DNA of 64,000 nucleotides from Cyanidioschyzon merolae. Its lineage: Eukaryota. The DNA is taken from the NCBI GenBank assembly GCA_000091205.1, contig AP006489.2; one strand, 5' to 3'. Positions 665 through 64,000 of the stretch are shown here, piece after piece. Position 1 is the stretch's first letter. Every line of letters starts with the position of its first letter. The translations under genes were made by a program, and so were the position numbers. The notes under the pieces are model-generated. The model was not told where the DNA came from. It saw only the letters and a list, made by a program, of their open reading frames with translations, and searched no databases.

Positions 665-1965
665 TTGAGGTACCTCGTTACGAAGACATTCGCAGGGTTT
701 CCGCTCGTTTCGTTGCCAGCTGTTCACATGCTTCCGGAAGTTTTCGATCAAACCCTTTATGCGACATCACAACGGATGATCGTAGAATTAACAGTGCACA
801 CATGCGCTTCCCAGAATACCTTGACACGTTACCGCACCACATCGGCGTTTAGAACATCCACCGTGCAGGTTGTCACAGAGGATCCATTAGGGCTCGGCAA
901 CAAGATGCGGGTCCATACAGCGCACTTCATGCGGCAAACGATACGGGCATTATACCGTAACCTCGCTCGTCGATCATAGCAGGAAACGGCGGAAGGAATT
1001 CTCACTGTGTCGTTGGAGACAAATGACGAGCTGGTTATGGCGGAAGCGATATCGCAACGAAAGCGAGAATCGCTTCAGAGCGTCCAAACGCATCATGGCG
1101 CTTGGCATACGATCGTACGGATGAACATGGCACACAAAGGAAGGTCGCAACGGAATGACTTTCTTCGTTGTACCTTGCGCTTCCACGTCATCCAGAACAG
1201 AGCGTTTCCTGTCAAGCGTATGTGAGCGTCCACACACGGCTCCTGTGCCCGGTCTTTGGCAAGCGTCCATGAGATGACGCTAGTGCCGCCAGCAATATCG
1301 GTTGCACGCGGACAAGAAGCCGGCATCCGTTGTGTTCTTAGATGAGTTGAAACTGGCACTGACCCGAAAGCCGCGATTGTTTGCGCCCCAGCCTATGACA
1401 CTGCACATGCGGCAGCGTATAAAGGCTGTACTGATGCCCCTTCGGCGGGCGCATAGCGCGCTCGTAAATGATCCGACTGCCTACAGTGCCTGTCGACGCC
1501 TTTAGGACGAAATATAGGCATCACGTGCTCAGATGCACGCTGAAATACCTAGACAGGCTGTGCCAGAAACAGCATTGTCCCCATGAAATGATGCCCCAGC
1601 AGTCGACTGAGCATCACACAGCACGCTATGCAGAGGCTGGCGGCCCGCTACAGTGTGACTCCATCTGCAACCTTGCGCGCAGGCATTACGCGTTTCGTCA
1701 CAGACTTGAACGACTCGATCAGCATCCAGAACTTTCTCGTGCTTCCGCAGCGTCCAGCGCCTCTGTATCTAGCAAACATACGAGACTGCTGTATCGTACA
1801 CCGTGTAGATATTGTGCTGAAACGCTGCGTACTTGCGATGAAAAGCAATCTCATCATCCAGTCTAGGTCCAATTCGATTCCCATCTGTGCAGCACAGCAT
1901 GCTTCCGTTCAGTGCAAGCAATGCCAACAAGAGCCATGTACCGCCGAATATACAAATCGGTAACG
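665..1965. repeat. Left arm of a large inverted repeat (partner arm 14340-15635, about 98-99% identical, no indels across 974-1884)
   Basis: ORF pairs are mirror images with x+y=16291: 1468..1866(+) vs 14425..14823(-), 132 aa with 1 difference; 1093..1359(-) vs 14932..15198(+); 974..1270(-) vs 15021..15317(+); 641..979(+) vs 15312..15692(-). Similarity starts near 668 and ends near 1960, where the left arm carries one degenerate copy of the 63-bp minisatellite unit. Confidence 0.85.
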
Positions 1966-2371
1966 ATTTTCCCGGGCGACCCACGATGGAACAAATATGT
2001 TCCATGGCAAGATACCGCAGGGTACATACATGCAGCAATTGCACTGCACCGACCTACCTCGAGCGAGCAGTCGCGCTTCGACTCCGGCGACGACCAGGCA
2101 CTCCATAGCAGAGCGTTAACACCAAACCCGCCGTCTCGATAAACATCGAAAGCGCGTACCGCACGTACCGTCACGCGGCTACTTCAGCTCGAACCATTGC
2201 GCCTGAGTCGAAACATTCACGCTGCCCTGCTCAGCATCCGTACAGATACCAGACATGACGTTGTGTTCGAACGTTACAGCAGCTACGACTACGACAACTA
2301 CGGAATCTCCGCTATGTGCATGTCGATTCGAGATGCACCCATCCAATCCGTATGTTTGATCTTGCAGCGAT

Positions 2372-4270: not shown

Positions 4271-4413
4271 CGGTCCCCGTCTCTATACTTTGACTCGCCT
4301 TGCCTGAGAGCACTTTGGGCGGAATCGGAGGTGCAGCCTCTCCAAGCGATATGCGCCAGACATCGTACTCGAGGCCGTCGTTGCCGCCGCCAGCGCCACC
4401 GCCAGCGTCTTCA

Positions 4414-4878
4414 TACACCGCTGATGTGTACCTCTGATGGGAAGCGTCGACAGTGGAACACGGAAGGAGGACGATGCATAATCGATGCTTCTGTATTCGC
4501 TGGTACGGTGCGTATAATCGGGGATCACTTACACCGCTGATGTGTACCTCTGATGGGAAGCGTCGACAGTGGAACACGGAAGGAGGACGATGGATAATCG
4601 ATGCTTCTGTAATCGCTGGTACGGTGCGTATAACCGGGGATCACTTACACCGCTGATGTGTACCTCTGATGGGAAGCGTCGACAGTGGAACACGGAAGGA
4701 GGACAATGGATAATCGATGCTTCCGTATTCGTTGGTACGGAGCGTATAACCGGGGATCACTTACACCGCTGATGTGTACATCTGATGGGTAGCGTCGACA
4801 GTGGAACACGGAAGGAGGACGATGGATAATCGATGCTTCTGTATTCGCTGGTACGGTGCGTATAATCGGGGATCTCTG
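4414..4878. repeat. 116-bp minisatellite, about 4 tandem copies, immediately 5' of the P5CDH start
   Basis: Identical ORF starts recur at 4453, 4569 and 4801 (116 and 232 bp apart). The unit 'caccgctgatgtgtacctctgatgggaagcgtcgacagtggaacacggaaggaggac...' is read directly with few mismatches. Confidence 0.85.
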
Positions 4879-5402
4879 GTCTGTATGGAAACGTTCTGTC
4901 AAACAAATCGAAAAAATAGAACGCGGATCCGTTCGTCACTGCTCGTCGCGTTGTTCAGAATGCCGATGAGCAGGCGCAATGCGACACTACGGCATGCAGC
5001 GGGGATTCTGTTTTTCCAGCGGCATTCAGAGACACTCGCAACAACAATAGCGTATGCTGGTAGACAGACTAGAAAACACAGATGTCGTTGGATGCGCAAT
5101 CAATGGATCTTTTCTTCAGACGCTCCTGCTGCGCGCTGCACAAAACAGAAATCTTGCGTTTGTCGATGCCTTCGAGAGACGGCACCTGGCATGCCAGCTG
5201 CATGCTTGGCGCTGTGCCAAGCGCGCAAAAAAACGGGACCTGCAGTCCATCAAGGTACAGAAGGGATCTTGTATTGTCAAGTGACAGGCATTTCTCGTGG
5301 AAAAACGCTCTTGCTCGAACACGTTCATCGAGACTCGTAACGATGGTGATCGATGTGTTCACACCAAGTTGGCGCTCGCGCTGGATTCCCTGTTATGGAC
5401 AG

Positions 5403-5590
5403 AGCGCAGAACACGAGGAAAACTGCATATCGACAGATTTGGTCTGTATTTTACCACCGCTTGGCAACGATCCATCAACGCGATGGTATAGTCGCGCACA
5501 ATACGAGGAAAACTGCATATCGACAGATTTGGTCTGTATTTTACCACCGCTTGGCAACGATCCATCAACGCAATCATAGAGTATGCAGCG
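5403..5590. repeat. About 94-bp tandem duplication (2 copies)
   Basis: The motif 'acgaggaaaactgcatatcgacagatttggtctgtattttaccaccgcttggcaacgatccatcaacgc' occurs twice head to tail (5416 and 5510). Confidence 0.8.
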
Positions 5591-6004
5591 TTCCTCATCT
5601 GGTTATCGGTGCTGCGTGCCGAGCTTCCGTATGACGGCGGCTGTAGCAACATTCCAAAACCGAAATCCTTCCGTGGTGCATCAGTTGCAGTGATCCCGCC
5701 CAGTGTCGAACGCGCGGATCTGATTGTCCACCAAATATCTCCAAGTACCATCCTCGCCGCCGTCATCCTCCTCGTCCACGTCCTTCTCGTCGTCGTCATC
5801 GAGAAACATTGTGGAGGTATCTACCAAACGACACAGCGGCAGAATCACTGTACACACCTCTGAGAATCCCTTCGAGCAGTCTCGCTGACAGGCAGCGTCA
5901 ACGCACCTGTCACGCGAGCTATACGTTTATGCACGCCATTTCAGCTGCCTTCATCCTGCCTGGTATGCTTCTCCGCCGATGCGGTGGCATTAGAGTCGAA
6001 GCTT

Positions 6005-37263: not shown

Positions 37264-38886
37264 GTGTTCGCGCTATCTAGTGCACAATCAGTTCCGTTTC
37301 ACGCCATGGCTCGCAGGCACCTTTTCGCTGGCAGGTTTGCGGGATTCGCACCCGTCACTGGTGCGCTCTGGTTACGTCCAGGGCAGCGGGCGAGCTCACC
37401 GGTGACAGGCGCCTCGGACTCAGTATCGCGCCTTGGACAACGGCATCCGGTTTCTAGGCGTTGGCGGCAACAGCGAACCGGGCTGTTCAACGTGCGACTG
37501 TCCACGCGTCGGCTCCGGGTCTTTATCTCCACGGGGGAGGTCTCTGGTGATATGCACGGTGCTGCGCTAGCCCGGAGCCTCAAGCAGCAAGCGATGCATC
37601 GAGGTGGCTCGAGACAGCAGCAGCAGCTGCTGCTGCTGCGCGGAGTAGGCGGCCCAGCGATGCGACAAGAAGGTGTCGAGCTCTACGCCGACACGCTTCG
37701 CATCTCCTCCATTGGCCTCTATGAGGCACTGCGCTTTGTGGTGCCTGCTTATCTCGCATACGAAAAAGCAAAAAAGGAGCTGCTCGAGGATCCTCCGGAT
37801 GTCGCCGTTCTGATCGATTACACTGGACCGAATATGGCGCTGGCCACCTGGTTTCGCCAAAACCTGCCTGGTGTGCCGGTAATCTCGTACATCGGACCTC
37901 AGCAGTGGATCTGGGAAGCGAATGGGAAGCCAGCGCACCGTCTATTGGATTATTTTCCGATTCTGGCGACATGCTGCCGTTGTCTGGTTGCGATTTTCCC
38001 GCTAGAGGCAGCGTTCTACTGCCGAAAGCTCGAGGAGCTCGGGGCGCTTCCAAATCCACCGCCGCAAATTGTCTACGTAGGACATCCGATTCTGGATCTG
38101 GTTGAGCCCGTGACGCGAGACGCCGCTCGGGCAATGCTTCCATGGACAAGCTCGGAGCACGTGTGTGTGGCGTTGATGGTCGCCTCACGCCTACAGGAAA
38201 TCGGTGCTTTGCTTCCGGCGACAACGCGCGCAGCCCTGGCTATGGAAAAGTCGCTAGAGGCGAAGGACCCCCCGAAGCGCATTCGGTTTATCATTCCAAC
38301 GGCTAGACCTGAGTTTTCGGATCAAATTCGTCGTGTCTTGTTGGATCAGGGCGTGCCGTCGTCACGTATTGCGTCATGGGATCCGAACCTGCGCGAGATG
38401 CATCCCGAGACGCTCTTTTTCCTGGTACCACGAGATTATGCTCGCCTGGTGCTTGCAGCAGCCGATCTTGCAATCTGCAAGTCGGGCACGGTAAATTTGG
38501 AGGCGGCGGTGCTCGGTGTACCTCAAATCGTGCTGTATCGTTTATCGTGGACCTCGGCCTTTGTCATCCGTCACCTATTCCAGATGCAACTACCGTACGT
38601 GTCAGCAGTGAATGTAGTCTGTCTGGATCAGGCGATTGTGCCGGAGCTGCTGCAGGAGCACGTCACACCGGAGCGAATCCACGAAGAGGCCATGGCGTTG
38701 CTAGAGAATCGCAACGGCTGTGCTGACCGGATGCGTCACTCGTACCAGAGCCAGGTGCTGCCGCGCCTGCGTCTAGCCGAGGACTGCCCTGAGCCGGTCG
38801 TCGAGCGAACTGCGGCCGGCAGAGCTGCCGCCGTTGTTTGGCGCTACCTAGACCAGGCGCAAGAAAGCCGCACACTGGTCACCTGA
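37264..38886 (+). CDS. lpxB: Lipid-A-disaccharide synthase (LpxB, GT19) with an organellar-presequence-like N-terminal extension and an internal QQQQLLLL insertion
   Basis: Colinear with bacterial LpxB: 'RVFISTGEVSGDMHGAALARSLK' vs '[22 protein letters not shown]', 'GVGGPAMRQEGVE', 'PDVAVLIDYTGPNMALA', 'AICKSGTVNLEAAVLGVPQIVLYRLSWTSAFV'. A (cag)4(ctg)4 tract lies at about 37610-37640. Confidence 0.85.
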   Translation: MFALSSAQSVPFHAMARRHLFAGRFAGFAPVTGALWLRPGQRASSPVTGASDSVSRLGQRHPVSRRWRQQRTGLFNVRLSTRRLRVFISTGEVSGDMHGAALARSLKQQAMHRGGSRQQQQLLLLRGVGGPAMRQEGVELYADTLRISSIGLYEALRFVVPAYLAYEKAKKELLEDPPDVAVLIDYTGPNMALATWFRQNLPGVPVISYIGPQQWIWEANGKPAHRLLDYFPILATCCRCLVAIFPLEAAFYCRKLEELGALPNPPPQIVYVGHPILDLVEPVTRDAARAMLPWTSSEHVCVALMVASRLQEIGALLPATTRAALAMEKSLEAKDPPKRIRFIIPTARPEFSDQIRRVLLDQGVPSSRIASWDPNLREMHPETLFFLVPRDYARLVLAAADLAICKSGTVNLEAAVLGVPQIVLYRLSWTSAFVIRHLFQMQLPYVSAVNVVCLDQAIVPELLQEHVTPERIHEEAMALLENRNGCADRMRHSYQSQVLPRLRLAEDCPEPVVERTAAGRAAAVVWRYLDQAQESRTLVT

Positions 38887-40022: not shown

Positions 40023-41984
40023 TCAAACGCCTGATTCGAATGGTGTACGATCCTCGCGTTCTGTCTCCGCGTCAAGGTGCTGGCGACGTCGATCCTGCCG
40101 TTTTGTCCATCGATGGAAGGCTAGTGCTCCTGTCGAGATGCTCATCGTACTCATGGTCGCCAATGTCGGAAACCGTCGGGGCGACGACAGCGTAAAAGAT
40201 ACGCCGTACATGAGCAGTTCAGCGAGTGAGCACAGGGCGGCTTCGACGGCGGAGACCTCGCCGACAGCGCTTGCATCGACCATGGTTTGCATGATTTCGG
40301 TTTCGGCGGTGTCCCAGCACCAGAGGCCCCAGCGAGAGAGTGTCACGAAGACGAGAACACCAATGAGCAAGGGCGGTTGCTGATACGTTATCTGCGCGAC
40401 TGAGTTCTGCGCGGCGCTGGGGAGCGGCACCTCAGGAACGCGGACGAGCCACAAAAGCAGCTGCGCTGGGAGCAAGCACGCAAGCTGGCACAGCACGCCA
40501 ACGCGGCCTACCTGCAGCACAGACCAGTGGAGACGGGTGACAAGGATCTCGAAACTGAAGGTTGCAAGGATACCGATGATTGCGGATGCAGCACGGAAGA
40601 TGCCAATGGTGCTGCCATTCACGCCGCAATACGTCAGGAAACCGAACAGGAGGCCGCCAGGCGAAAGCACCGTGAAATAGAGACTAACATGTGCAAGGGA
40701 TGGTACAAAAGTTTCCTGTTCGTAATATAGTCGCCAGGATGAGAAGAGCTCTCGCAGGTGTTGATAAACCGTTCGAGCCGCAACCGCGACTCTAGTGGTT
40801 GTGCTTGGGATTGGCTCCTCACGAGTCGATGCTGTGCCCTGTACTTTGCGCCCGGTTCTCCGCGCTGCATCCTGCTGCTCGTTTGAGGCGTTCACGTTCT
40901 CGCCTCGGGCGCAGATTTGGCTCGCCCTGAACAGCGCAACGAGCTGAATAGCTAGCAGAAACGCCCCGAAACGCGCCACAAGTACAGAGCCTTGCACTTC
41001 ACCGCGCGAGGAGAGGAGCCAACCCACCAGCAGCGGCATTCCGATATCGATCGTCATGGTGATACGGCGCATACGCGCGTTTGCGATCGCCAGCTGCTCC
41101 TCTGTTTTGGAGCCATCTATTGCACCACTTTGGTACTGCTGGGCATGCACAGTGAGCGGTAACCACCGTTTCCAGAGCGAAATTTCCAGTGCGAATTCGC
41201 TGAGTGCCGCAATTGTACCGAAAACACAGAACCATAAAGTACCCTCAGGAATCGCGGTTGCCTGATCGTTTGGCCGGTACCGCGCAAGCAGAGGCATCCA
41301 AATCGCACAGAGCGATGTGCTGACTCCATACAATACGGAGGCAACGGCCGCTGTTCGGAAGCGCCAGCCCCAATCCAGCATTTTTCCAACCGTTGGGCCG
41401 AGTAGAAAGCACGCTCCGCGGCTGCTCAGCATGTAGATTGCCGCCGGCACGAACGAGCCATCCGTCCGGTTCAGCGCTCGCTGTGAGACTATCATTAAGA
41501 ATATTGGAACAACGAAGGTGAACGCCCTCTGGACGCCGCAGATGAGGGCATATGCAGTGTACAGCGGCAGGAACGCCAAAATGGACGGCTTCGCTTGTCG
41601 GCTGTGCTGCGTCGCTGGCTCACCGGTGCGGTTGGCGTCGTTCGCGGGGGTACTTTCGACTTCCGAACTTGCGTGAGTCCCTCCCGAGTCACTTTCAGGG
41701 GGTCTGCGACTCTCTGAAGGTGGCAGGAATTCCGTGTCCGCAGAGACAGTCGCAGACCTGCTCTCCGCAACGTGCTGTGCCTTCTGAGTGACCGCCTGCT
41801 GGAAGCCCGACGTTGCGACCTTTTCGGGCTGCGCAAGCACTACGCAGGTTTCAGCGGTCGCTTCAGCACACATATCAGAGCACACAGTGCCTCTCGTCAG
41901 GGTCAAAGTGACGGCTCCTGGTAAACAGTCTTGCCTCGCGTCGCCTCTGGGACAAGTCGACCGACCGTGCCTCAATTTGAGCAA
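40023..41984 (-). CDS. Multi-pass membrane transporter of the MFS-like superfamily, probably ferroportin/SLC40 family
   Basis: 653 aa with about 10-12 hydrophobic helices. 'RWGLWCWDTAETEIMQTMVDAS' resembles the ferroportin 'RIGLWSFDLTVTQLLQENV' block. N- and C-termini are hydrophilic. Confidence 0.4.
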   Translation of the reverse strand: MLKLRHGRSTCPRGDARQDCLPGAVTLTLTRGTVCSDMCAEATAETCVVLAQPEKVATSGFQQAVTQKAQHVAESRSATVSADTEFLPPSESRRPPESDSGGTHASSEVESTPANDANRTGEPATQHSRQAKPSILAFLPLYTAYALICGVQRAFTFVVPIFLMIVSQRALNRTDGSFVPAAIYMLSSRGACFLLGPTVGKMLDWGWRFRTAAVASVLYGVSTSLCAIWMPLLARYRPNDQATAIPEGTLWFCVFGTIAALSEFALEISLWKRWLPLTVHAQQYQSGAIDGSKTEEQLAIANARMRRITMTIDIGMPLLVGWLLSSRGEVQGSVLVARFGAFLLAIQLVALFRASQICARGENVNASNEQQDAARRTGRKVQGTASTREEPIPSTTTRVAVAARTVYQHLRELFSSWRLYYEQETFVPSLAHVSLYFTVLSPGGLLFGFLTYCGVNGSTIGIFRAASAIIGILATFSFEILVTRLHWSVLQVGRVGVLCQLACLLPAQLLLWLVRVPEVPLPSAAQNSVAQITYQQPPLLIGVLVFVTLSRWGLWCWDTAETEIMQTMVDASAVGEVSAVEAALCSLAELLMYGVSFTLSSPRRFPTLATMSTMSISTGALAFHRWTKRQDRRRQHLDAETEREDRTPFESGV

Positions 41985-51400: not shown

Positions 51401-52012
51401 CTATTCTGGAGGACTCGTCTCCATCACCGCATATCTTGTTGTATTGATAGCGGCATTGTAGTCACGATTCACGAATGCCATATGTTTCTCACCATCATTG
51501 GTTGTACATACTAACGCAAGTAGCCCGCGAACTTTTGCCCTCCTTTCCGTTTGCTCTTCCGTCAGCGGTCTGTACTTTTTTGTATCATCAAGGCTCCGCA
51601 GGCACTTTTCCATCTCCACCCTCTGAGGTGTGCATTCCAACTCATGGTGTGTATACGATGTTCGGAACTCATCCATCGGTATCGTAACGAAATGCCTTGC
51701 GCAAGCTTTGTACGTTCTCGTCGTTGATGCTGATGCACACCCTTTTCGGGTCTTCCAGCGCCATGCTCCGTGTGCTACTACGAGCCCCTGACGTACATCC
51801 TCCTTCAGGGCGCACAACTCATTGAAAAAGTTCGCGAACGCACGCCATTTCCCCCAGTATAGATTCATACGAAGACGAGCCCACCGGGGCTTTGTATACT
51901 CTTTACAGAGCGCATCCAAATAAGCAACGCGAACTTCCATGAATTTCCGAAAAGATTTAAAGTACGCGCCGCGGCTCGTCGCCTCGCTGATACCTTCCAG
52001 GTGATCCTTCAT
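51401..52012 (-). CDS. C-terminal RuvC-II/zinc-ribbon/RuvC-III region of a TnpB/Fanzor-like (OMEGA-type RNA-guided) nuclease
   Basis: '...LYWGKWRAFANFFNEL.......HFVTIPMDEFRTSYTHHELEC...C...LVCTTNDGEKHMAFVNRDYNAAINT' matches the TnpB/Cas12 terminal architecture: WgeF...L.YKa block, v.vdp.yTSq.C zinc-ribbon entry, then the RuvC-III 'DxNAAxNI' motif (here RDYNAAIN). Confidence 0.5.
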   Translation of the reverse strand: MKDHLEGISEATSRGAYFKSFRKFMEVRVAYLDALCKEYTKPRWARLRMNLYWGKWRAFANFFNELCALKEDVRQGLVVAHGAWRWKTRKGCASASTTRTYKACARHFVTIPMDEFRTSYTHHELECTPQRVEMEKCLRSLDDTKKYRPLTEEQTERRAKVRGLLALVCTTNDGEKHMAFVNRDYNAAINTTRYAVMETSPPE

Positions 52013-52081
52013 ACCTACATTCCATGTCTCAATTTTCTTCCTTGCATTCGTTATCCCAGATTCTCGGCAGCATCTCGATCT

Positions 52082-53577
52082 TTAGAGCTTTAAAAGACGC
52101 ATGTCCTTCTGATGTAAGTTGTTGTCGTTACCATCTTACACACGCTTGGGTACAGCGATGGTTACGATGTTCGTGTTCCCAGCGTCCGCGCAAAACGACA
52201 ATGTCATTCTCATGCACTTCCTGCATCGCAGGATCCGCCTCCTTCTCATCTCCGTGCTTCGTCACCGGCGCAGCCGAGGGCGGGACTGGACAATGTTTCT
52301 TCGACCCCGATAGTTTACACGCATAGACATGCCATCGGTTTCCATGGTGCCTGTGAATGCATTATTTCTTGCCCGCATCGAGACGTATGAAATGGAGGGG
52401 TAATTTTCATGTTCGTCTCCCGGTTTTCGCAAGTGAACTCTATCTTCCTTACATCGAACTCCGTACAAAAAATCCCTCATGGTATCTTGAAGAGCTGAGG
52501 AGTCCATTGTCACACACTGTAATCTGATGCTCCGTAAGGGAACGACGTCGAAGCGCTTCCCCATTAGGGCAGCGTTCCGGTTCTCCGACTGTATACTTTC
52601 CCACATCCAGCTGCTTTTCGGTCTTGCGTTCGAGTTCTCGTTCCAACAACACGAGAAACGGCAGAATGAAGCGATAACATCTTTCTTCATCTTTTTACAT
52701 ATCTGATATTTTGTCTGCTGGGTTGAGCAGCCTCAGAAAAGCACGGTGCTCTTGAATAGCCGCCGGGATTACAGAAGCTTCATTCCTTCCCCTGCGTAGT
52801 ATCTTCTTGCCGACAAATTCGATCTCCTCTTCATGCTGGCGACCGTTGGCGATGCCATTGATGATGGCCCATATACCTTTGCGAGAGACGCTCGGGTACA
52901 GCGCAGAGGTGCAGCGTATCATGAAGCGTTCGAGGTTCACAATCACGTGTTTCTCCAGGTTGGTGAGGTACTTCATGGCCCCAGAGCAGTAAATATCCCC
53001 GTCTTCCTTGTATCGATAATTGTTGAACCGGAATTCGGCGTTGGTTTCGTGGAGGGAATGCACTAGCCCATTTATTGTAGACGTTTCCCCGTGCCAACCA
53101 TCAGGTGGCGAATAAAGGTCTTGTCGAAGAGTTCTTCCGGAAACTGGTCTCTTTTGATGCACGTAACGTCGTAGTACATCTCCTTGACCATATAAACCAG
53201 TGCTAAAGAAGCTTTACGAATACTCCTGGAGTACAAATTGACACAGTTTCTGATGGCCTCTCACAAATTTTCCTTGTACGGGTTCTTAACATGTTTAAGA
53301 AGAGAGGCATTCACGAGCATCTCGTCGTACTGTCGCTTCCTTGCATCGTTTGACGTAGGGCCTCCTGCCTTTGGTTCTTGGTCCTCTCCCGTTCCTATGA
53401 GCTTGGCACTGGTTTTCGATTTTTCTCCCGCAGCCGGCGATACCGGCTCTCCAGGATCCTCCACTCCCTATTCCACAACTTTCCTTTCTTATTATTTTGA
53501 AAATGAACGCATTCTGAATGCTTCTGGCATAAACCGCGAAAAATCAGTTGGACATACTTACTTGGGGATTGGTACAC
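52082..53577 (-). pseudogene. Upstream (N-terminal) portion of the same TnpB/Fanzor-like gene. It is broken by in-frame stops and frame changes, either from introns or from pseudogenisation
   Basis: ORFs 52262..52690(-) (same frame as 51401..52012), 52695..53162(-), 53261..53464(-) and 53395..53577(-) tile about 2.1 kb upstream. That is Fanzor-sized (~700 aa) rather than bacterial TnpB-sized (~400 aa). A possible RuvC-I-like 'KGIWAIINGIANG' (GIDLG-like, with D->W) is only weakly supported. Confidence 0.3.
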
Positions 53578-54819
53578 GGTTGAACTGAAATCTATTCTTT
53601 GCTACGACTTTAGTAAATATATTTTACGTTAGCGCAACACGCGAATACAAAGGATCGCGTCTCGCTTTAGCTGCGAGATGCAAGTCGTGTCTCATGCCTG
53701 CCAGCTATGAAGGTGCGCTTATCGACCGCGCAACAGAAAAAAAAGAACAGAAACTAAACACTAACTAGTAACGAAAGATAAATTTCGTTCGAACTTCATG
53801 CTAAGCGATAAAAGAAGAAAAGGTTTCCGTATTTTAGAAAGCTTGCCTTCTAGGAGGAAGGCCACGCGAGCCGCACATGTGTGCGGGGCACGTGCTCTAT
53901 GCTTCCCAAGTGACAGGTGCTTTAGTGCGATCTGGGCAACTCATCCACAACGCAGTTTATTCTTCCGGTAGGAGAGGGTATGCTGCAGGTGAGCGTCGCA
54001 CTGGTCGAAGATGACTCCCAGTATAAAGCGCCGCGCTGTTACAGGCAGTAGGTCAGCGTGTCCAGCTTGGAGGCTCCCAGAAGTATAAATAGCCCTGGTT
54101 CCGTGTCAAGGGAACCAAGCCTCTTCCGACGCGCTCAGTGGTATGCCGAAGCTGTTCTGTTTCCGTAGCGCATCCGCATCAGCGATAGAGATGCTACGGC
54201 GGGTGCTCATGGCAAGCAAACGGAGCACGATAGAAAGTATGAATCAACCAGTACAGCCGAGAGTAAATAAAAACGTTGGAACGTACAGAAATTTTTCACC
54301 ATGATGGACGCATTCCCGACAGCCAATATCTATCAAGCAATCTGGGATATATGTTGAGTGGAAACGTTCCGTCGAACCAAAGAAAGCATAGCACGTGAGG
54401 GAATTCCCTAATGTCTCTGGTATTCGAAGCATCGCCTTGGCAGATGCATGTGCGCTCAAATTATCCCGCAGGAGTAAATTCCCTTATACCTCCGCTGCGC
54501 TATTCGTCGGCAGGCAGCGATCGTCGTGATCTCGGAGGAAGACTTTGCGGAGCTCTTAGCGCGAAGTATTTGCGAGGTTACTGGTCCGAAAACTGGGAGC
54601 TTTAACTGGTTTCTGAAAAGGATACAGAGCGCTTGTGCTAGTTCCACTCAACGCTTGGAAGTCTACACGAGACTGAGGTCAGAATCTGTGTAATTGACGG
54701 ACGATCACTCGTGCAGCTACACCAAAGAGGTTTTTGACTGGATACGCACGCTTACGCGAACGTTCCTAGTTGGTGGCGCGATTGGCAGCTTTGCACCGGA
54801 GAAAATCTAATCCAAGAAA

Positions 54820-56031
54820 ATGCAAGCTCTTTTCGTTTCTGTTCCGCTGTACCAGGAAAGACATATTGTTTGCGCGCGCGCTGCAACTCGAGCACCGTTC
54901 CCGCTGCGTACGCCTCGTAACGGGTGCTTCGCAGCTGGACATCGTCACCACTGCCAGCATCCGCTTCCTTTGGTGGTGCAGCGTTTGCCTGTAGCGCGCC
55001 GGCACCACGCGCTGCATCTTCGTATGGGCCCGAAACAGTCGCAGATCGCCGTGATCACTGGCGCGTCCTCTGGGGTCGGTCTGTATGCAGCTCGCGCTCT
55101 GATCAACAAGGGCAACTGGCACATCGTCATGGCATGTCGTGACGTCGACCGGGCGGAGCGCGCAGCAAACAGCGTAAACCTTCCAAAAGACGCCTATACA
55201 GTGCTGCATTGTGATCTGGCTGATTTCGCCTCTGTGTTGAAGTTTGTGAGAGAGCTGTCAAGTGTGGCGCGCGTCGACCACCTGGATGCCCTGATCTGCA
55301 ATGCCGCAATCTGGCATCCGCGGGACAAGAAACCGCGTTTCACGGTGGACGGCATCGAGGAAACCATGCAGGTATGCCATCTGAGCCATTTGCTTCTATG
55401 TCGGGAGCTGTTGCCGAAGCTGAAAATATCGCGCGGGCGCATTGTGTTTCTGACGACTCAGACACACTCGCCGAATTCGTTGCCGGGAAAGATTCCCCCG
55501 CAGGCTCGTCTCGGTGATTTGTCTGGTCTAGCCGCGGGGCTTGGTCCGCAGACGACGGGCATGGTGGACAGTGGCCCGTTTGAGCCCACAAAAGCCTACA
55601 AAGACGCCAAAGCCGCGAACGTGTTGACAATGAAGGCGCTTAGTGATCGATACGGCCGCGACGGGGTGACCTCTGTGGCGATTTTTCCGGGATGTGTCGC
55701 CGACAGCAACCTCTTCCGCGAAAAGCGTGGCTGGTTCCGCTACGTATTCTTCCCGATTCTTCAGAAGTACATCACTCGGCAATACGTTCCGAATGATGAG
55801 GCCGGCCGCCGCGTAGCCGAAGTGGCGACCCAGGGACAGTTCTCGGACTCGGGCTCGTATTATCAGTGGCGTGGCAAATATACGGAAGGTCGAGAGAAGA
55901 CGAAACCGCAGGTTATTGAACCAACATACGAAATCGACAAGGCAGATCAGCTTTACGAACTGAGTCTTGATCTGATCGACCAGGCGTTACGGCGGCGAGG
56001 CCTCAAGTCGACTATCTTGGCCCCTGTCTAA
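54820..56031 (+). CDS. POR: Light-dependent NADPH:protochlorophyllide oxidoreductase (LPOR, SDR family) with an N-terminal transit-peptide-like extension
   Basis: Colinear with plant POR: 'ITGASSGVGLYAARALINKGNWHIVMACRD..AERAA', 'PKDAYTVLHCDLADFASV', 'RLGDLSGLAAGL', 'TKAYKDAKAANVLTM', 'PGCVADSNLFRE', 'LQKYITRQYVPNDEAGRRVAEVA'. The ATG start was checked in the sequence. Confidence 0.9.
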   Translation: MQALFVSVPLYQERHIVCARAATRAPFPLRTPRNGCFAAGHRHHCQHPLPLVVQRLPVARRHHALHLRMGPKQSQIAVITGASSGVGLYAARALINKGNWHIVMACRDVDRAERAANSVNLPKDAYTVLHCDLADFASVLKFVRELSSVARVDHLDALICNAAIWHPRDKKPRFTVDGIEETMQVCHLSHLLLCRELLPKLKISRGRIVFLTTQTHSPNSLPGKIPPQARLGDLSGLAAGLGPQTTGMVDSGPFEPTKAYKDAKAANVLTMKALSDRYGRDGVTSVAIFPGCVADSNLFREKRGWFRYVFFPILQKYITRQYVPNDEAGRRVAEVATQGQFSDSGSYYQWRGKYTEGREKTKPQVIEPTYEIDKADQLYELSLDLIDQALRRRGLKSTILAPV

Positions 56032-56368
56032 GGTTTGTTAGTGATGAAAATGAGATGCAGCTTCGGAGCGCAGACCGCTGCTTCAAGAACAGATGTAAGA
56101 GCAACAGCGTAACGATGAGACGACACCCCACTGTCACAATCGGATATTGAACGGATGGGTGGGCATTCCTCCTGTAGTGGTGAACCAAAATTGCTTCGCA
56201 AGTCATAAAGCGTACTGAAGTAGTGATTAATATAGCTATAGCTATGACCTACTTCGCATCGAACGCGCCAGAGAATGCTGACTGCGGTCGTTGAAGAGGG
56301 CAGAGCGTGTTTATTTGGGTATTTTTTTGCGGTGAAGAATATGGCAATAGAAGCGCACTTGCAGACGT

Positions 56369-57808
56369 TTGAACGATCTGTGGGTATTCGATATCAAACT
56401 GGGTCAACGGGCGTGGATTAATGGAAGCTCGGTAGTGAATGCTCCAGCAAGATATGGAGCATTGAACGAATCCCACCCAAGGATTGTACCAGGTGCTCGC
56501 CATGGATCAGCCTTCTGGAACACCAGTGAGACCGATTCGATCATATTTGTTGGAAATGGATACATAAACACGACCGGCAGTGACTTTCTCAATGGTATCT
56601 TTGCATTAAAGAAAACATTCCCTACTCCAACACCGAAACCTACGCGGACACCCACCCCCATCTGCACCGATGAGCTCTGCGGATCTCCGGTACAGTGCAT
56701 CAACCAGGACGCTTGCGAGCAAGTCGGGCGCTGCTTCAACTCCCAGACGAACGCGTGCACCCTGAAGAGCGTCTCAGCGGCGTGCAGCGCTGTTCCAGTG
56801 ACGCAGCGCGTCACCTGCGGTTGGAGCTACATCTACCCCGACGAGTGCACTGCGATACCGGGATGCTGCTGGCAGCCAACGGCAAACGGCATCCTCGCGC
56901 CCTGGTGCTACTACGACATCAACCATGCACCCCAGGCTTCCGTAGCGCGCCAGGAGGTGCAGGCACCAGTTCCCCTCTGCCCGTCACCGAGAGCGCAGCG
57001 CCAGCCGTGCGGCAACGCGGGTATCAACCAGTTTACCTGCTATGCCCAGGGCTGCTGCTACGACTCGCAGGCGCAGAACCAGTGGGTGCAGAACGGCAAG
57101 CAGCAGAGCGACTTTGCGTCGAACCTGTACTGCTTCCAGCCTGAGAAGACGTGCGCGGTGGGCGAGTTTGAGCGCCAACCGTGCTCGAACGCGCTGAACC
57201 AGAACCAGCAGCTGAACAATAACATCAACAGTAGCCAGTTTGTGCGTCTGCTGAACACGGTCCTTTACGGAGAGCAGCACGGGACGCAGCGCACGAGCTA
57301 CCCGCCGCAGCAGTGTCTTTAGGCTGGTTGCTGCCTGGGGCCCGGCAACGAGTGCTCCCAGCCGGTTACCGAGTATGTTTGTCAGGCGTATGGGTACGTC
57401 CCGAACTCGCTGAACAGCACGACCGGCAACGTATCGAACTCGACGTATATTCTGTGCGGCCCGGAGCGCTGCAACGCCGAGATGGAGAATTGCACGTCAA
57501 ACCCGTTCAGCAACAGCAATAACGTGCAACAGCAGCAGCAGCAGCAGCAGCAGCGACAGGTGCCGTTGCCGTCATTCTGTGTATGCAAGGACTCTACAGT
57601 TCACTCCGGGACGTACCTGATGCCTTCGGACAACCTTGTGAACAAGGTGCGTTGCTGCCGCTCTGGCGAGGAGTGTATCAACAGGCAGTGTGTGGTGTTT
57701 AGTGCTACACGGTCTCCGAGTGCCGTTATTGCGACTGCAACTGCGTCTCCAAGTGTGTCGGTATTGGTGTCGACCTCGACGCATGCCTCAGCAAGTGCTT
57801 CAGTATGA
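56369..57808 (+). CDS. Secreted-type mosaic protein (probably the 3' exons). From N to C: a kelch-repeat blade, a PT-rich linker, a Cys-rich module, about 2-3 trefoil (P-type) domains, a polyQ tract, then a Cys-rich tail and Ser/Thr-rich tail
   Basis: Kelch-blade motif 'DLWVFD...W...PARYGA...HGSAFW'; linker 'PTPTPKPTRTPTP'; trefoil 'RVTCGWSYIYPDECTAIPGCCWQP...APWCYY' and 'RQPCGNAGINQFTCYAQGCCYDS...'. The two ORFs 56369..57322 and 57482..57808 are in different frames, so an intron or frameshift is likely. The tool start is TTG, so the true 5' exons probably lie upstream. Confidence 0.5.
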
Positions 57809-58489
57809 ACCACTGCGTTGACGCAAGCTATCTGGACGGCCCCGCGCGCGAACACAGAACTAAAATATGTTTCAGTTATTGGTATATTGATTCCATGAGG
57901 AACGTGGTTGTACAATATAGTTCGCACGTGCATGCACGCAACCTTTCCGGCCGGGCAGAAAGCCCATAATCCAATGTTGAGGGTATCTGGACGCCTAACG
58001 AACCCCCAGTCTGGGTGTCAAGAAACATGCAGATAGCGTGCAGAAAGAGGGAGTTTTTCGTACTGGGGCACATCAGGCCGGGTCTGAATGCGCGACGGGC
58101 ACGACATTAGCCTTTTTGGAGGTTTGGACTCTGCATGCATATCTGAAACACGACTGCGGCGTAGACGACTATCTTGTGCTGCCATTACGAGAGCGCCATC
58201 ATGAAACTCAGTAGCAGACGCTGCAAAATATCTTTGTCCGTTTATACTAGAAATGTCCCGTTTCGGGAGCGCCGTGCGCAGATCTGCGTCATTCAGACGG
58301 CGGTGCTTGACGCGCTCCCGTGCTGCTTACCTCAGAATACTTCGTGGAGGCTCGTAGTGGTACGGACGGAGACAGCAGTGACAACAGTACCAGCAGCTGG
58401 AGGCTCCCCTATCCCAATAGATAGTAAGCAACTCGTTTCTCTGGGAGGCGTTTTCTTTTCACTGGTGCAGAACCCCTTTCGTATCCCAT

Positions 58490-60676
58490 ATGCGAAAAAG
58501 ATATTTTTCCATAGTGAGACTACTGGTGATAGTATTGGTTGTGTCGAGTACACACTCAGTTCGTGGAGTTTTGTCATCCGAAGATACTTTTTTATGGACC
58601 TGGATCGGTGGCAGTAACTCTACCGACAGTTCAGGTAGCTACGGTGTTCAGGGTGTGCCAAACACCAGCACCGTGCCTCCGGCGCGGTACGGTGCGGCCT
58701 TCTGGACCGGCGTTGACGGGGTGCTCTGGTTGTTTGGTGGCAGCGACTCGAGCGGCGTCTTCGGTGATCTCTGGAACTACAATCTGAGCACGTTCTCTTG
58801 GACCTGGGTTGGAGGCTCTGCATCCCTCAACTCTGAAGGGGTATACGGCTCCCTCGGAGTTCCCAACAAGAGCAACTATCCGCCTTCGAGGACGGAATCC
58901 GCTTCATGGAGCGACAGCTACGGAAACCTTTGGCTATATGGAGGCCAGAATTTTAACTCGGGCTATAGTGATATGTGGATGTATAATGTATCGTCGGGCG
59001 AATGGACCTGGGTGCAGGGATCCACCGAGACCAATGTTTCCCCGATATATGGTACTCTTGGGAACTCTTCTTCTAGCAACACGCCTGGCGCCCGTTTCCA
59101 ACCCGCAACCTGGGTTGGCCTAGATGGCCAGTTTTATCTCTTTGGTGGATTCAAACCTTTTGGTCCTCTTTACGGTGACTTGTGGCAGTACAACACAGTG
59201 ACCAACGAATGGAGCTGGATAGGTGGCACTCAACAGCAGACTCCCTCTGGAAGCTATGGTACGTTTCGCCAGGCATCGCCGAACAATTATCCCGCTGGAC
59301 GTGCCGGAGCCACATCGTGGCGAGACCTTGATGGGAACTTTTGGCTCTTTGGAGGTTTCGGACAGATTGTCGGATCTAGCAATCTTCTCAATGATTTATG
59401 GCTGTACAATGTCAGCTCCAAAGAATGGACTTGGATGTCTGGAAATGACAGTGTTGGTTCGAATGGGTCGGTATACGGCGAGAAAGGAGTGCCGTCATCG
59501 AGCAACACTCCGGGGTACAGATCCGGTTCCTCTGGATTTGTAGACTCGTCAAACACTCTGTATCTCTTCGGTGGTAGTTCACCCGGTGTCTGCAACGACC
59601 TGTGGACGTTCAATATTACGAGTCTTGAATGGACTTGGGTAGACGGTGACGATACAACGAATGGAGCCTATAGCTACGGCGAGGTTAACAAGACAAGCAA
59701 TACAACGCTTCCACCTCCGCGATACGGTGCAGTTCTTTGGAATACCGATCAAAACGACCCGGTCCTATTCGGAGGCCAAGGCAGCTCCGGTAGCTATAAC
59801 GACCTCTTCACATTATACATCGCAACATCGACGCCTATGCCGACCGCAACACCGACTCCGACGGCATCACCGACGCCCTCCGTTACTGCATCACCGTCGG
59901 CAACAACGAATGTGACGCAGACCGCTGTAGGCGAAGGTTCTGCGGTCTGCTTCCCCGCGGATGCCTCGGTGCTGATCGATGGTCTGGGCAACAGTCTGCT
60001 TATAAGCGAGCTTCGATCAGGTATGGCCGTGATCGGCGTCAATGGGCGTGGGCAACTGGTCGAAGACAGTGTACTAGGATGGTTGCATAACGAGCCCGGC
60101 GCTACTGCAGAGATTCTTGCGATCAAGACGCTTTCCGGAAAGCAGCTGCGTCTGACGAGACAGCATCTGGTATATCGAGTGATCGAACACTCTAGAGACT
60201 TTGATAGTATGACGACCGCTTTCTCGTGTATTTCACAGAAGCAGCAGCAGCAGCATCAGAAGCACGTAGGTCAGAGCCTTGAGCTGGGTACCTCCGCCGT
60301 TGTGGCAGTTTTCGCGGAAGATATCCGCGTTGGCGACGCTCTGCTGGACGTTGCTGCGCAGCTGCCGGACCCCGTTGTGGCAATCGAGACTTTAGTAACG
60401 CACAATGGTCTCTATGCGCCGTTGACTCGCTCAGGGCGCCTTGCGGTCGACGGTGTTCTCGTGAGCTGCTACGGGACGTACGCATCGCATGCCGTGGCAC
60501 ATGCAGTGTTGTGGCCTGCGCGGGTCGATGCTCTGCGCAAGGTATGGGGATCAGGGCTCGGCACAGAGGGTATTGTGGGTATCATGCCGTATGCAGAAAG
60601 GCTCTATCACATTTGGACGAGTGCAGCACGTGTTCTAACGGAGGCTCGCGTAAGTGTTGTGGTTGCAGCCTGCTGA
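58490..60676 (+). CDS. Secreted kelch-repeat (beta-propeller) protein with a Pro/Thr linker and a C-terminal Hedgehog-type Hint (Hog) autoprocessing domain
   Basis: Signal peptide MRKRYFSIVRLLVIVLVVSSTHSVRG; six or more kelch blades (repeated 'DLW.YN....W.W..G...P..R'); linker 'TPMPTATPTPTASPTPSVTASPS'. The Hint module starts at the conserved Cys ('GSAVCFPADASVLIDG...ISELRSGMAVIGVNG...LTRQHLVY' vs Hh-C 'GCFPGDA.V.L.G....ISEL..GDRVLA...LTPAHL') and ends 'HNGLYAPLTRSGRLAVDGVLVSCYGTYASHAVAHAV'. Confidence 0.8.
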   Translation: MRKRYFSIVRLLVIVLVVSSTHSVRGVLSSEDTFLWTWIGGSNSTDSSGSYGVQGVPNTSTVPPARYGAAFWTGVDGVLWLFGGSDSSGVFGDLWNYNLSTFSWTWVGGSASLNSEGVYGSLGVPNKSNYPPSRTESASWSDSYGNLWLYGGQNFNSGYSDMWMYNVSSGEWTWVQGSTETNVSPIYGTLGNSSSSNTPGARFQPATWVGLDGQFYLFGGFKPFGPLYGDLWQYNTVTNEWSWIGGTQQQTPSGSYGTFRQASPNNYPAGRAGATSWRDLDGNFWLFGGFGQIVGSSNLLNDLWLYNVSSKEWTWMSGNDSVGSNGSVYGEKGVPSSSNTPGYRSGSSGFVDSSNTLYLFGGSSPGVCNDLWTFNITSLEWTWVDGDDTTNGAYSYGEVNKTSNTTLPPPRYGAVLWNTDQNDPVLFGGQGSSGSYNDLFTLYIATSTPMPTATPTPTASPTPSVTASPSATTNVTQTAVGEGSAVCFPADASVLIDGLGNSLLISELRSGMAVIGVNGRGQLVEDSVLGWLHNEPGATAEILAIKTLSGKQLRLTRQHLVYRVIEHSRDFDSMTTAFSCISQKQQQQHQKHVGQSLELGTSAVVAVFAEDIRVGDALLDVAAQLPDPVVAIETLVTHNGLYAPLTRSGRLAVDGVLVSCYGTYASHAVAHAVLWPARVDALRKVWGSGLGTEGIVGIMPYAERLYHIWTSAARVLTEARVSVVVAAC

Positions 60677-63600
60677 GCTGGCAATCTGCCCTGCAGGACA
60701 GGGGCGAACAGTACCGATGGTACCACTCTAGGTGCTGCTTTTTCTGCCATAGGATAGTGTTTGAGCAATGATGGTAAAACGCGCTCTATCGCGAAAAAGC
60801 AACCCGCAGCATATTGCCAGGCATTTTTGATATGTGATGGTACCAGATCCACTTATATAAACGAGCGGAGTTGCAAAGAAGTATTCGTGTGTGTGTGTAA
60901 TCGAGGCACGCCGCGAAATACAGTTTTATGTACCAAGATGTACTGTAGCGCTAATACTTGCGGAGAGCAATAGCGGCAGCTGCCGGTTACATGAGACTGA
61001 GTGAGCAGAGGTTTGCATGCATCTATGCTTCGAAATAGTATTGTGGCTGGGTAGTTGTGGAACGCTCCGCTCGGACATATATTCAGATATGAAAATTGGC
61101 TCTTAGCACTGGGGCGTGGTTCTTGGAACGGTGCAGTGAGAGCGATAAGGATTTCACAGTTGGGAAGATACGAGAAAAATCTATGAAAATTTTTTCAAGA
61201 AAGAAGAGCTGTATTGAATGCAATATGATCAAGATTCGCGACTGAATGTGGAGAAATAGAATTGGTTATAGTCGTACAATTCTACAGCTCCTGCAGTGGA
61301 AAGCATGAAAACGGAAAGTTATAAGGCCAAGGAGTAAATATCTCACGGTTATTCCGTTGATGCACTGCAGATGAGAAGGACTACCAGGAAAAATATCGGC
61401 AGTGAAATGAACCTGGCTGTCAGTAGACTTCACTAGAAAGAACGTAACCACAGCCTGATCCCCATAGTTATAAGGCAGAGTGTACTGTGCCAGAGGCTCT
61501 GCACACTGCTCCAAACTTTGTGTAAGAAGATGTTTATATTTATGTTCTGGTGCCCTGGAGGGTGCACAGTATGTATATACTTCATAATTAATGTAAAGCA
61601 AGTTCCCGTGCTGATGAGCTCAGTCGTGCCAGTCCTGCTGATCGCACAAGGCAGCCTACTGGTAGCAACAAACCGGTGCTTATGGAACGATCGACCTGAT
61701 TGGGCCTGTCGCCACGACTCCGACCGACGAGGCGTACCGCAGAGCGAATCCTGCATACAGTGGAGCTAGTCAGAAAGTCCATGATGTAAGTCTAGATGAA
61801 GCTCAAGTGGGCGCGCGACATTCAACTGGTACCTTGGAGTTTGCTACAGTCTCGTCCTGACAAGCTCCGAGTCTGCCGCGGTACACGCGTTTGGAGTTGT
61901 TCGAGTTCTGGCTCTAGTGCGTTTATCGGCAAAAACCGCTACATGTCCGGAGTGAGCTACAGGTGAAGCCAGTCTGTGCTTTGTGGATACGGTGCAGCCA
62001 GCATGTGCCAGGAGCTGCATCCGGTAAACTCTGGGCCATAAGGAATGAAGGCGAGACGCCAAGCAGCAAGCTTTGAAAAATAAACAAGAAGCAAGGACGC
62101 TAAGGTCAGAGTTTGGGTGCTCGCGATCTTTGCCTCCAACCAAGCATCCCTGAAGCAGCCGCAAGCAGACCTGTATGGGCGAAAAGCTCATTGTCATATC
62201 GGGGCCAGCTGCTCTTCGATGCCGAGGCGGCGCGGTGGCTGATTCCGCCTTCCAGGAACGGTAGCGCGGAACATTGCTATTGCTACTCTAGAGATGTGTA
62301 GGGGCAATAACTAGATAGATTAGTGAACAGTGGTGCGTGAATTCAGTGTACGCGTACAAGAAAGAGCATAGGGAACAATGTTGTGCGTGAATCCAACGAA
62401 TCAGAATACAGACCAGAAAAAGAGGCCTCGATCATGGTCTGTTTCTAGTGCACATGTAGTTCCCTGCATGCTGCCCTGCGACAATGTGTTCATTCCTGTA
62501 AACAATCTATATTGATGGTAAACAATGTTGGATCTCAGCTTGTATGAAAATATGCCTGGTACCGCAAGCACTGCCAAAGCGATAGACTGAGGTGCATTGC
62601 TAGACCGTATTGATGGGCATGGGGGAGGGTAATCAGCTGTACTGGATCTTCTCAACTTCACTGAAAACGGTATCCGAGTCGGAATGCCGAATACGGGTCG
62701 GCAGCAGAAAAACAGTTATAACGTACGCTTAGCGCCTGTGGATGCTTATGGTAAGGACGCGAAGCTAGACGTACATTCAAATCCTGAATAGACCCAACAA
62801 ATTATATCCATGTACTTTGTCTGAACAACCACGGCACGCGCATCGATACGTAGGGTCGCATTCCCGTATACGGCGATTCCTCCGGAGGCCTGCCCTGTCG
62901 ACGTGCGACGCGCAGCTGCTGTTCGCAGTGGCGCCTACTCCGGTGTGCTGCGTGCTGCATAGCGACCGCGCAAAGTGATTACGAGCGCCTCCTACACAAT
63001 GATCGGTAGGCCGAAAAGGAGATTGGAGCTCCTAATAGAAGTAACGTGCCCACCGCTACTGTATTGCTGCGTGAGACCCAAGGGCCGGGTCGTCTTTTTT
63101 TTCCAACATTGCTCTCGGATCATCCATGAATCGGATCCACACGCAGGCAACAACAGGTCCCGGACCTACAAGCTGTCGACGAAGAAACCGCACCAGAGTC
63201 GCCTGGAAGCTAGCCACTAGCAAATTTGAGCTTAGTTACGGCTAGTGCTAGGAACGCTGACAGGGAAGAGATAGAGTTGCAACTGAGAAGATGTTCCAAA
63301 AAAGATATGTAGCTTTGTGCTTGCAGCTGAGTAGGGTGACTTACAGCAAGTTCATAACAATGAAAGAAATACGAACAATGATGACTACTGTGGATATTCG
63401 GAAAGCTCTGAAACGCGGTGGATATGAATGTATGGACGAAGGGCTTGCAAACAACCATCAAAATCGTGTGAAGAAAAACGATGAGGATAGCAGAGTTACT
63501 AAGCGGAGCAAACAACGCACACAGCCATTGGGCTGGTCTGAAGTCGCAGATAATTGAAAGCTCAACAATACCAAGCCATGTGCAGATAAAAGGCCATTCA

Positions 63601-64000
63601 TTAGGTACGATGGGAACACAATTCGACAAGAATATAAGCAGAAATATATCGAAAATAACATGAAAAGAGCACTTTCTTTGTTCAGTTAAGATATTTGTGT
63701 AACAATGGAGACAACCTAGCACCGAAAAAGCAGCATTTAAGTACTGTGAGATGTTGAGAGAAGAAAACGGAGACAAAAAATGTTGAAGAACGACACACAC
63801 GAAACCAACACAAGCGAGCGCGCGATTCAGACCACGCGCGAAGGCCGGGGCCCAAAACATAGGAAACGACGAGGCGGTCAAGCTAAAATGCATCGATACT
63901 ACTGCGCGTACTGGAGTATCCAGGTGGCCACACACAGTCCAATGATGGAAAAGATTCCCCTCGGATCAATCGCTAGAGACATTAATACTGGAATGGGGGG

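Follow-up and report, generated by a model that had tools for sequence, protein, structure and literature searches.

The sequence considered here is a stretch of 64,000 nucleotides from Cyanidioschyzon merolae (contig AP006489.2; hereafter the window), and our interest lies in two neighbouring forward-strand sequences near its end: an open reading frame (ORF) at 56369-57322 that encodes trefoil-type modules, and a kelch-Hog gene downstream of it. Seven of the eight window ORFs that were looked up matched annotated proteins of C. merolae 10D chromosome 7 (584,452 bp) exactly, and the window is the terminal ~64 kb of the right end of this chromosome (7R). Its last nine bases are the first unit of AATGGGGGG, the telomere repeat unit of C. 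merolae (PMC1955436); two tandem units were sought in the window and none were found, the single unit standing at the extreme end. Since the window ends in this unit, the trefoil/Hog region is 3.3-7.6 kb distant from the right-hand telomere of the chromosome. Nozaki et al. (2007) listed 7R among the ends carrying a 'PH element', in which P stands for NADPH:protochlorophyllide oxidoreductase (POR) and H for a hedgehog-like gene, and placed 'T' (trefoil factor) genes in other terminal elements (PMC1955436). The marks of such an element are present at this end, namely POR followed by a hedgehog-like gene, an adjoining telomere repeat and copies at other chromosome ends, with paralogs on chromosomes 6, 11 and 14 and a POR paralog of >90% identity on chromosome 14. 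The trefoil/Hog region is thus the distal part of the subtelomeric PH element at 7R and holds one intact gene and one gene remnant. The accessions of POR (BAM79708) and Hog (BAM79709) are consecutive, so no gene is annotated between them in 10D. We conclude with high confidence that 7R carries an intact kelch-Hog gene next to a pseudogene remnant (56292-57808) of a sister kelch-trefoil subfamily (Table 1).

Table 1. Features of the 7R region, in window coordinates unless a metagenomic locus (L number) is named.
Feature	Position	Strand	Remarks
Deletion junction with decayed relic of the preceding kelch strand	56292-56368	+	blastn against L007 and L004
Lone surviving kelch blade, equivalent to blade 6 of the kelch-trefoil type	56369-56608	+	
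Short Pro/Thr linker, KKTFPTPTPKPTRTPTPI	56609-56662	+	much longer in full-length L006 and L007
Cys-rich trefoil-like unit 0	56663-56767	+	window-specific Cys-to-Arg at 56729-56731, in the conserved GCC motif
Two canonical trefoil (P-type) domains, units 1 and 2	56783-56914 and 56978-57136 (within 56783-57136)	+	Pfam, phmmer
Third trefoil-like unit with Asn/Gln-rich insertion	57152-57385	+	broken by TAG at 57320-57322
C-terminal Cys-rich module, polyQ (57527-57553), Ser/Thr/Ala tail, TGA	57446-57808	+	
Cysteine changes in the C-terminal module	57467-57469 (Cys-to-Arg); 57605-57607 (Cys-to-Ser)	+	
Intact kelch-Hog gene, BAM79709.1 'similar to hedgehog protein'	58490-60676	+	Pfam, exact match
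Kelch-Hog: signal peptide	58490-58567	+	
Kelch-Hog: six kelch blades	58589-59818	+	
Kelch-Hog: Thr/Pro/Ala/Ser linker	59819-59947	+	
Kelch-Hog: Hint/Hog module	59948-60673	+	
POR gene, the 'P' of the PH element	54820-56031	+	exact protein match BAM79708.1; adh_short E=2.6e-23
Telomere repeat AATGGGGGG, first unit	63992-64000	+	last nine bases of the window
POR copies in metagenomic relatives	L002 174-1433; L007 385-1641; POR regions of L009, L011, L013 and L015		

The first-pass annotation, which saw the letters alone, had read the upstream sequence as a kelch-domain gene continuing into Cys-rich and trefoil modules and polyQ, and had set an E-value limit of 0.01 for the trefoil assignment. 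The ORF at 56369-57322 matches the Pfam Trefoil family (PF00088) in two stretches with E=1.4e-15, well below that limit, and with 57.3 bits against a cutoff of 21. The same family is matched by the ORF read through its stop, by the full-length relative L006, by BAM79920.1 and by the Cyanidium homologue P0126. In phmmer searches of the PDB, TFF2 (porcine spasmolytic polypeptide), TFF3 and TFF1 were found at E=4.5e-6 to 2e-4 with the cysteine columns aligned, together with the P-type domains of sucrase-isomaltase and maltase-glucoamylase. Units 1 and 2 each hold 6/6 cysteines in the order C..C..C..CC..C, and five of the six cysteine columns of unit 1 align to TFF2; one cysteine is lost from unit 0, and unit 3 is cut by a TAG in the window copy. 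The six-cysteine signature CG...C...GCC[WY]...WC[YF] is shared with TFF1-3 and with the P-type domains of GH31 enzymes. Unlike TFF1-3, the window domains sit in what was a large kelch-linker protein and have longer loops (CX5CC in unit 1, a long loop 3 in unit 2 and the insertion in unit 3). Trefoil domains have a three-loop fold with disulfides 1-5, 2-4 and 3-6; an AlphaFold2 model of the Cyanidium homologue, built on a shallow alignment of six sequences, reached a mean predicted local distance difference test score (pLDDT) of 42, too low for this fold to be judged. Beyond the single TAG at 57320-57322 the frame stays open to the TGA at 57806-57808, so that it spans 317 codons, or 480 if the TAG is ignored, and a (GCA)9.7 tract at 57526-57554 encodes the polyQ. 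The Cys-rich, trefoil and polyQ parts of the first reading are therefore borne out by Pfam, phmmer and the repeat tract.

The kelch part of that reading, in which both genes open with kelch sequence followed by a Pro/Thr linker, holds in full for the downstream gene; the upstream sequence retains a single blade and a short linker. The closed propeller of about six blades that a kelch domain calls for is found in the downstream gene, whereas the upstream ORF has one blade and no match to the Pfam kelch models even at E<=1. Within this blade the FGG diglycine is altered to FVGNG. That it is kelch sequence is nevertheless clear (BLASTP E=1e-13, 35% identity, best to blade 6 of that gene). The upstream ORF has no signal peptide, its maximal 12-residue hydropathy being 0.60 compared with 3.01 in the Hog gene, and its frame contains no ATG upstream of 57482; the 'TTG start' at 56369 merely reflects a convention of the ORF tool. 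Given the absence of both, the upstream ORF as encoded is not a secreted-protein gene. Kelch propellers joined to trefoil or Hog modules do exist in C. merolae (PMC9812998), so the idea of a secreted family stands, but the upstream copy does not qualify as a secreted member. In-frame stops lie just upstream of 56369 (TGA at 56333-56335 and TAG at 56348-56350), and a search of the window for other kelch, trefoil or Hog fragments found none.

Close relatives came from protein searches in hot-spring metagenomes, from which 17 metagenomic loci were collected; these searches also found a 395-aa 'trefoil factor' of Cyanidium caldarium. In L004, L006 and L007 the family is present in full-length form, as a single ORF of 865-908 codons (908 aa at L006 55-2781; 865 aa at L007 4429-7026). 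The full-length architecture comprises a signal peptide (MFRARSL...LLLAATFSVSLVAA), six kelch blades, a long Pro/Thr linker, the trefoil region and the C-terminal module, and Pfam confirmed both kelch and trefoil on L006. C. merolae 10D itself has a full-length kelch-trefoil gene of 901 aa on chromosome 5 (BAM79243.1). The protein of the window ORF is ~75% identical to residues 390-892 of L006, the near-identical metagenomic counterpart of this type of gene, and its blade shares 61-69% identity with blade 6 of the full-length kelch-trefoil genes. With the 10D kelch+trefoil genes BAM79243.1 and CMR001C, labelled 'similar to trefoil factor', the window sequence shares blade 6, the Pro/Thr linker, the Cys-rich unit, three trefoil-like units, polyQ and the C-terminal Cys-rich module; unlike them, it lacks the signal peptide and blades 1-5, carries a premature TAG and three cysteine losses, and is unannotated.

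The missing part has been deleted. L007 has the order POR, ~2.8 kb, kelch-trefoil, kelch-Hog, and in blastn window 54402-56291 corresponds to L007 1-1904, the match resuming at window 56368 with L007 5595. The ~3.7 kb of L007 in between (1905-5594), which holds the start codon, the signal peptide and blades 1-5, is represented by 76 bp in the window; homology to L004 extends back to window 56325. In all truncated copies that include the blade region (the window, L002, L008-L013 and L015) homology begins at one and the same point (position 1167 in the coding sequence of L006), and this common breakpoint points to a single ancestral deletion that then spread with the element. An old deletion common to all truncated copies thus removed the promoter-proximal part, with the start codon, the signal peptide and blades 1-5. 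What is left runs from blade 6 through the linker and the trefoil modules to the C-terminal Cys-rich module. Since then this copy has gained a nonsense codon and lost three conserved cysteines, in a lineage evolving at a nearly neutral rate.

The first-pass annotation had instead implied 5' exons, and comparison with L007, L006 and L004 contradicts this. A working, secreted kelch-trefoil gene with its 5' exons (start codon, signal peptide, further blades) situated before the ORF and spliced to it would suit the CAG at 56362-56364, directly before the ORF, the length of the open frame and the purifying-type pairwise substitution ratios in the trefoil part. The spacer between the POR stop (56031) and the ORF, however, is only 337 bp long, and no signal peptide or kelch blade is encoded in any of its three frames; the sole GT...AG pair read in it (56332-56364) is 33 nt long and leaves the frame unchanged. 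Introns are very few in C. merolae, each of the full-length relatives is one ORF without introns, and the 5' part that such a gene would need is absent from the window. As splicing would also leave the TAG and the cysteine losses unexplained, we regard this alternative as highly improbable.

Three side observations concern the trefoil copies as a group. The protein P0127, a gene call on a Joint Genome Institute (JGI) metagenome contig of 1559 bp, has ribosomal L39 and a C2-domain sequence fused to the C-terminal third of a trefoil gene, the trefoil part beginning at ...YAPQQCLEAGCC; its sequence indicates a putative further trefoil remnant with a different truncation point, beside unrelated genes, a chimeric contig being the alternative. 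At the codon that follows ...ECI[NS]NE (L007 7024-7026, L008, L011), several copies have a stop, L002 has Trp and others have Cys (via Gln-Cys); as this codon after ECINN varies, some copies have the Ser/Thr/Ala-rich C-terminal tail and some lack it. Length differences among the Asn/Gln runs are multiples of three bases.

Decay of the upstream copy is visible in individual codons. The TAG at 57320-57322 is common to the window and L004 only. The codon at 56729 is CGC in the window and TGC in 15/15 other covering loci; the cysteine change at 57467 is found also in L004 and L005, and that at 57605 also in L005, L011 and L012. Reassignment or readthrough of the TAG was considered and rejected, as 15 related loci read GAG (Glu) at this codon, Cyanidium P0126 has Gln there and the frame is also without a start. 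Damage is found in sister truncated copies too, with frameshifts in L009, L013, L012 and L015 and extra stops or cysteine losses in L010, L011 and L012.

Substitution patterns agree with relaxed constraint. The lineage formed by the window, L004 and L005 has accumulated 23 nonsynonymous and 8 synonymous derived codon changes, and six nonsynonymous changes and one synonymous change are private to the window; with a ratio of nonsynonymous to synonymous sites of 3.56, these counts give a ratio of substitution rates (dN/dS, omega) of ~0.8-0.9. A first count of private substitutions, from which L004 and L005 had been left out, gave omega ~0.88 for the window and 0.26-0.31 for full-length copies (Fisher p=0.03). 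On the recount most of the 'private' changes proved to be shared with L004 and L005, so the signal of relaxed constraint belongs to a small lineage and not to the window copy alone. The full-length L006 and L007 (omega 0.26-0.31) differ significantly from neutrality. Measured by the marks of a functional gene, namely a start codon, an unbroken frame and purifying selection in its own lineage, the upstream ORF falls short.

Several observations weigh against calling the upstream sequence a pseudogene. Pairwise dN/dS in the trefoil part, compared with full-length copies, is low (0.23-0.33 for the window, 0.12-0.16 for L002 and L008), which could mean that truncated copies are still under selection, and L002 and L008 retain an open frame and every cysteine. 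On 10D chromosome 8, the corresponding truncated copy has been annotated, from a fortuitous ATG, as a protein of 373 aa 'similar to trefoil factor' (BAM79920.1). In addition, the comparators are short-read metagenomic contigs that may be paralog chimeras, which weakens the lineage assignments and the case for gene conversion. The low pairwise dN/dS and the long open frame are best explained by recent origin from intact paralogs or by sequence exchange. As for BAM79920.1, it is 5'-truncated like the window copy, starting in blade 6/linker, and shows similar cysteine changes, with one lost (DAYEQ for DACEQ) and others gained. It differs from the 7R copy in its fortuitous ATG and the lack of an internal stop, neither of which advantages the 7R copy has, and these features explain why it was annotated.

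The similarity of the upstream copy to its relatives is mosaic. Identity rises abruptly at the linker, being 72-76% in the blade and 89-95% beyond the linker, and the closest relative shifts along the window, from L009/L013 at 56350 to L002 at 56650, L005 at 56800 and L004 (100%) at 57100-57400. A 490-bp tract (56991-57481) differs by one base from L004, whose kelch domain is complete and which also carries the TAG. This pattern hints at gene conversion among paralogs, with which it would fit; since the comparison is with contigs assembled from short metagenomic reads, and the family is a repeated one, chimeric assembly is an alternative source of the mosaic.

That the truncated copy is still used, either for a trefoil-only product (through non-AUG or downstream initiation, or stop readthrough) or as a gene-conversion reservoir, would agree with the changing closest relative, the near-identity of the tract to L004, the undamaged frames and cysteines of the truncated L002 and L008 and the annotated chromosome 8 protein. 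We nevertheless consider it unlikely: in a product without a signal peptide the disulfide-rich trefoil modules would miss the oxidising compartment, substitution in the window lineage is neutral-like, and mosaics drawn against short-read contigs can be assembly artefacts. A doubtful extension of the same data is that truncated trefoil remnants in PH elements exchange tracts with full-length kelch-trefoil genes, the chromosome ends serving as a pseudogene-assisted system for diversifying cell-surface glycoproteins. Such a system would loosely resemble the subtelomeric families of surface proteins known from parasites and yeasts.

The downstream neighbour of the pseudogene remnant is intact. Its ORF (58490-60676) matches kelch (PF24681, E=1.3e-36) and Hint (PF01079, E=2.1e-30), as the first-pass annotation had anticipated in assigning it a Hog domain, and it has six W[TS]W blades and a hydrophobic N-terminus. 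No HhN (Hedge) match was found in Pfam searches with this protein; its N-terminal part is the kelch propeller. In alignment with human SHH, Cys487 (CFPADA), Thr556 and His559 (TxxH, LTRQHL) and Cys660 (SCYG) are in register; the roles of the Hint Cys, TxxH and SCY residues have been reviewed (PMC9163320). The CFP cysteine, TxxH and SCY are thus shared with non-Hedgehog Hog proteins (Burglin 2008, PMC2362128) and with the Hedgehog C-terminal domain, as is the C-terminal position in a secreted precursor. The protein differs from Hedgehog in having a kelch propeller in place of the HhN signalling domain and a histidine for the general-base Asp on which sterol transfer depends (Drosophila D303, SHH D243), namely His533, encoded at window 60086-60088. 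An engineered D303H Hedgehog reportedly retains activity, with sterol tolerance broadened (PMC9163320), so His533 is no argument against autoprocessing, which on the conserved residues is plausible for the kelch-Hog protein. The natural His533 of this red-algal Hog domain mirrors the engineered variant. A polyQ insertion also lies in the Hint domain (CAG repeat at 60236-60264). The dN/dS of the kelch-Hog gene against its relatives is 0.34-0.65, which indicates that the gene evolves fairly fast.

By analogy with Hedgehog C-terminal domains, the kelch-Hog precursor would enter the secretory pathway. There Cys487, aided by Thr556 and His559, would bring about an N-to-S acyl shift at the Val486-Cys487 bond, and the resulting thioester would be resolved by a nucleophile that may be a sterol, another lipid or water. 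The kelch-linker fragment would then be freed at the cell surface, possibly lipid-tagged. The Thr/Pro/Ala-rich linker is probably O-glycosylated.

The two neighbours had been thought to record local domain shuffling, and the first-pass annotation proposed aligning their kelch portions as a test of recent duplication. That alignment shows relatedness but no recent duplication. With blade 6 of the adjacent Hog gene the upstream blade shares 36% identity, and the whole propellers of the kelch-trefoil and kelch-Hog subfamilies are 38% identical; at 36-38% kelch identity the neighbours represent two old subfamilies rather than a tandem copy that has lately exchanged its tail. Recent tandem duplication of a single kelch gene, with a different C-terminal module then substituted at the Pro/Thr linker, would be in keeping with the shared strand, with the order of kelch, linker and then differing C-terminal module in both sequences, and with the sharp change of identity at the linker. 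Yet the blade is far closer to blade 6 of the kelch-trefoil genes than to that of its neighbour, and the full kelch domains are as distant as the single blade. Moreover, kelch+trefoil genes occur in Cyanidium and kelch+Hint genes in Cyanidiococcus and Cyanidioschyzon, so the split predates these genera (PMC9812998). We accordingly give a recent duplication with module replacement scarcely any probability.

Their adjacency recurs elsewhere. A trefoil sequence followed ~0.7 kb on by Hog is also found in L002, L003, L005, L007, L008, L009, L012, L013 and L016-L018, and this is the standard layout of a subtelomeric block repeated at several chromosome ends (PMC1955436).

Other parts of the chromosome end merit brief description. 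POR is intact at 10D 7R, and frameshifts or in-frame stops occur in the PH-element POR of several metagenomic relatives (Table 1), so the 'P' gene may also decay in some lineages; contig sequencing or assembly errors are the alternative. Window 52000-53691 is a more diverged repeated segment (64-77% identity to L011-L014 and L017), whose counterpart in L017 lies downstream of the Hog gene rather than upstream; its sequence suggests a candidate further subtelomeric module, older and rearranged. The minus-strand ORF at 51401-52012 has no Pfam match. Neither does the hydrophobic-rich minus-strand ORF at 63210-63935 (241 codons), which lies <=0.8 kb from the telomere and whose region, up to 63530, is 94% conserved in L003. 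Further inside the window, and unrelated to the trefoil/Hog region, are ORFs matching LpxB (37264-38886, plus strand, Pfam E=2e-62), a lipid A pathway enzyme of bacterial type, here in a red alga, and ferroportin (40023-41984, minus strand, E=4e-58).

Descriptions of the kelch+trefoil and kelch+Hint families of the chromosome ends have been published (Nozaki 2007; Cho 2023; Plant Cell 2026), and Hog proteins have been established in red algae generally (Burglin 2008, PMC2362128). Cho et al. (2023) found kelch fused to trefoil or Hint via a Thr/Pro/Ala-rich linker to be the most prevalent subtelomeric gene duplication of Cyanidiales, counted 11 kelch+Hint copies in Cyanidioschyzon, and listed CDCA10G3079 (P0126) as a non-subtelomeric, trefoil-only gene (PMC9812998). 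We had considered the kelch-trefoil fusion to be specific to Cyanidioschyzon, since P0126 has no kelch, and rejected this idea because kelch+trefoil genes occur in Cyanidium (PMC9812998). That paper, the only one checked on this point, makes no mention of pseudogenes, truncation or gene conversion in the kelch family (PMC9812998). A Plant Cell study of 2026 counted 17 Hog and 15 trefoil-like genes in C. merolae, reclassified the 'hedgehog' genes as non-Hh Hog proteins, found the Hog genes mainly haploid-expressed and the trefoil-like genes mainly diploid-expressed, suggested a role in acid protection and regarded a convergent origin of the trefoil domains as possible (PMC13353863). Several trefoil-factor genes are induced under nickel stress (PMC12112623). 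Against this background, what our analysis adds is only modestly new: the pseudogene status of the unannotated trefoil sequence in the PH element, and the hint of sequence exchange between remnant and intact copies.

For the 7R locus, the trefoil sequence between POR and Hog is due a pseudogene label and does not speak for fresh domain shuffling. For the kelch/trefoil family, counts of 'T-only' gene copies probably include such remnants. For this red alga of acid hot springs, the kelch-fused trefoil and Hog modules may form cell-surface or acid-protective glycoproteins.

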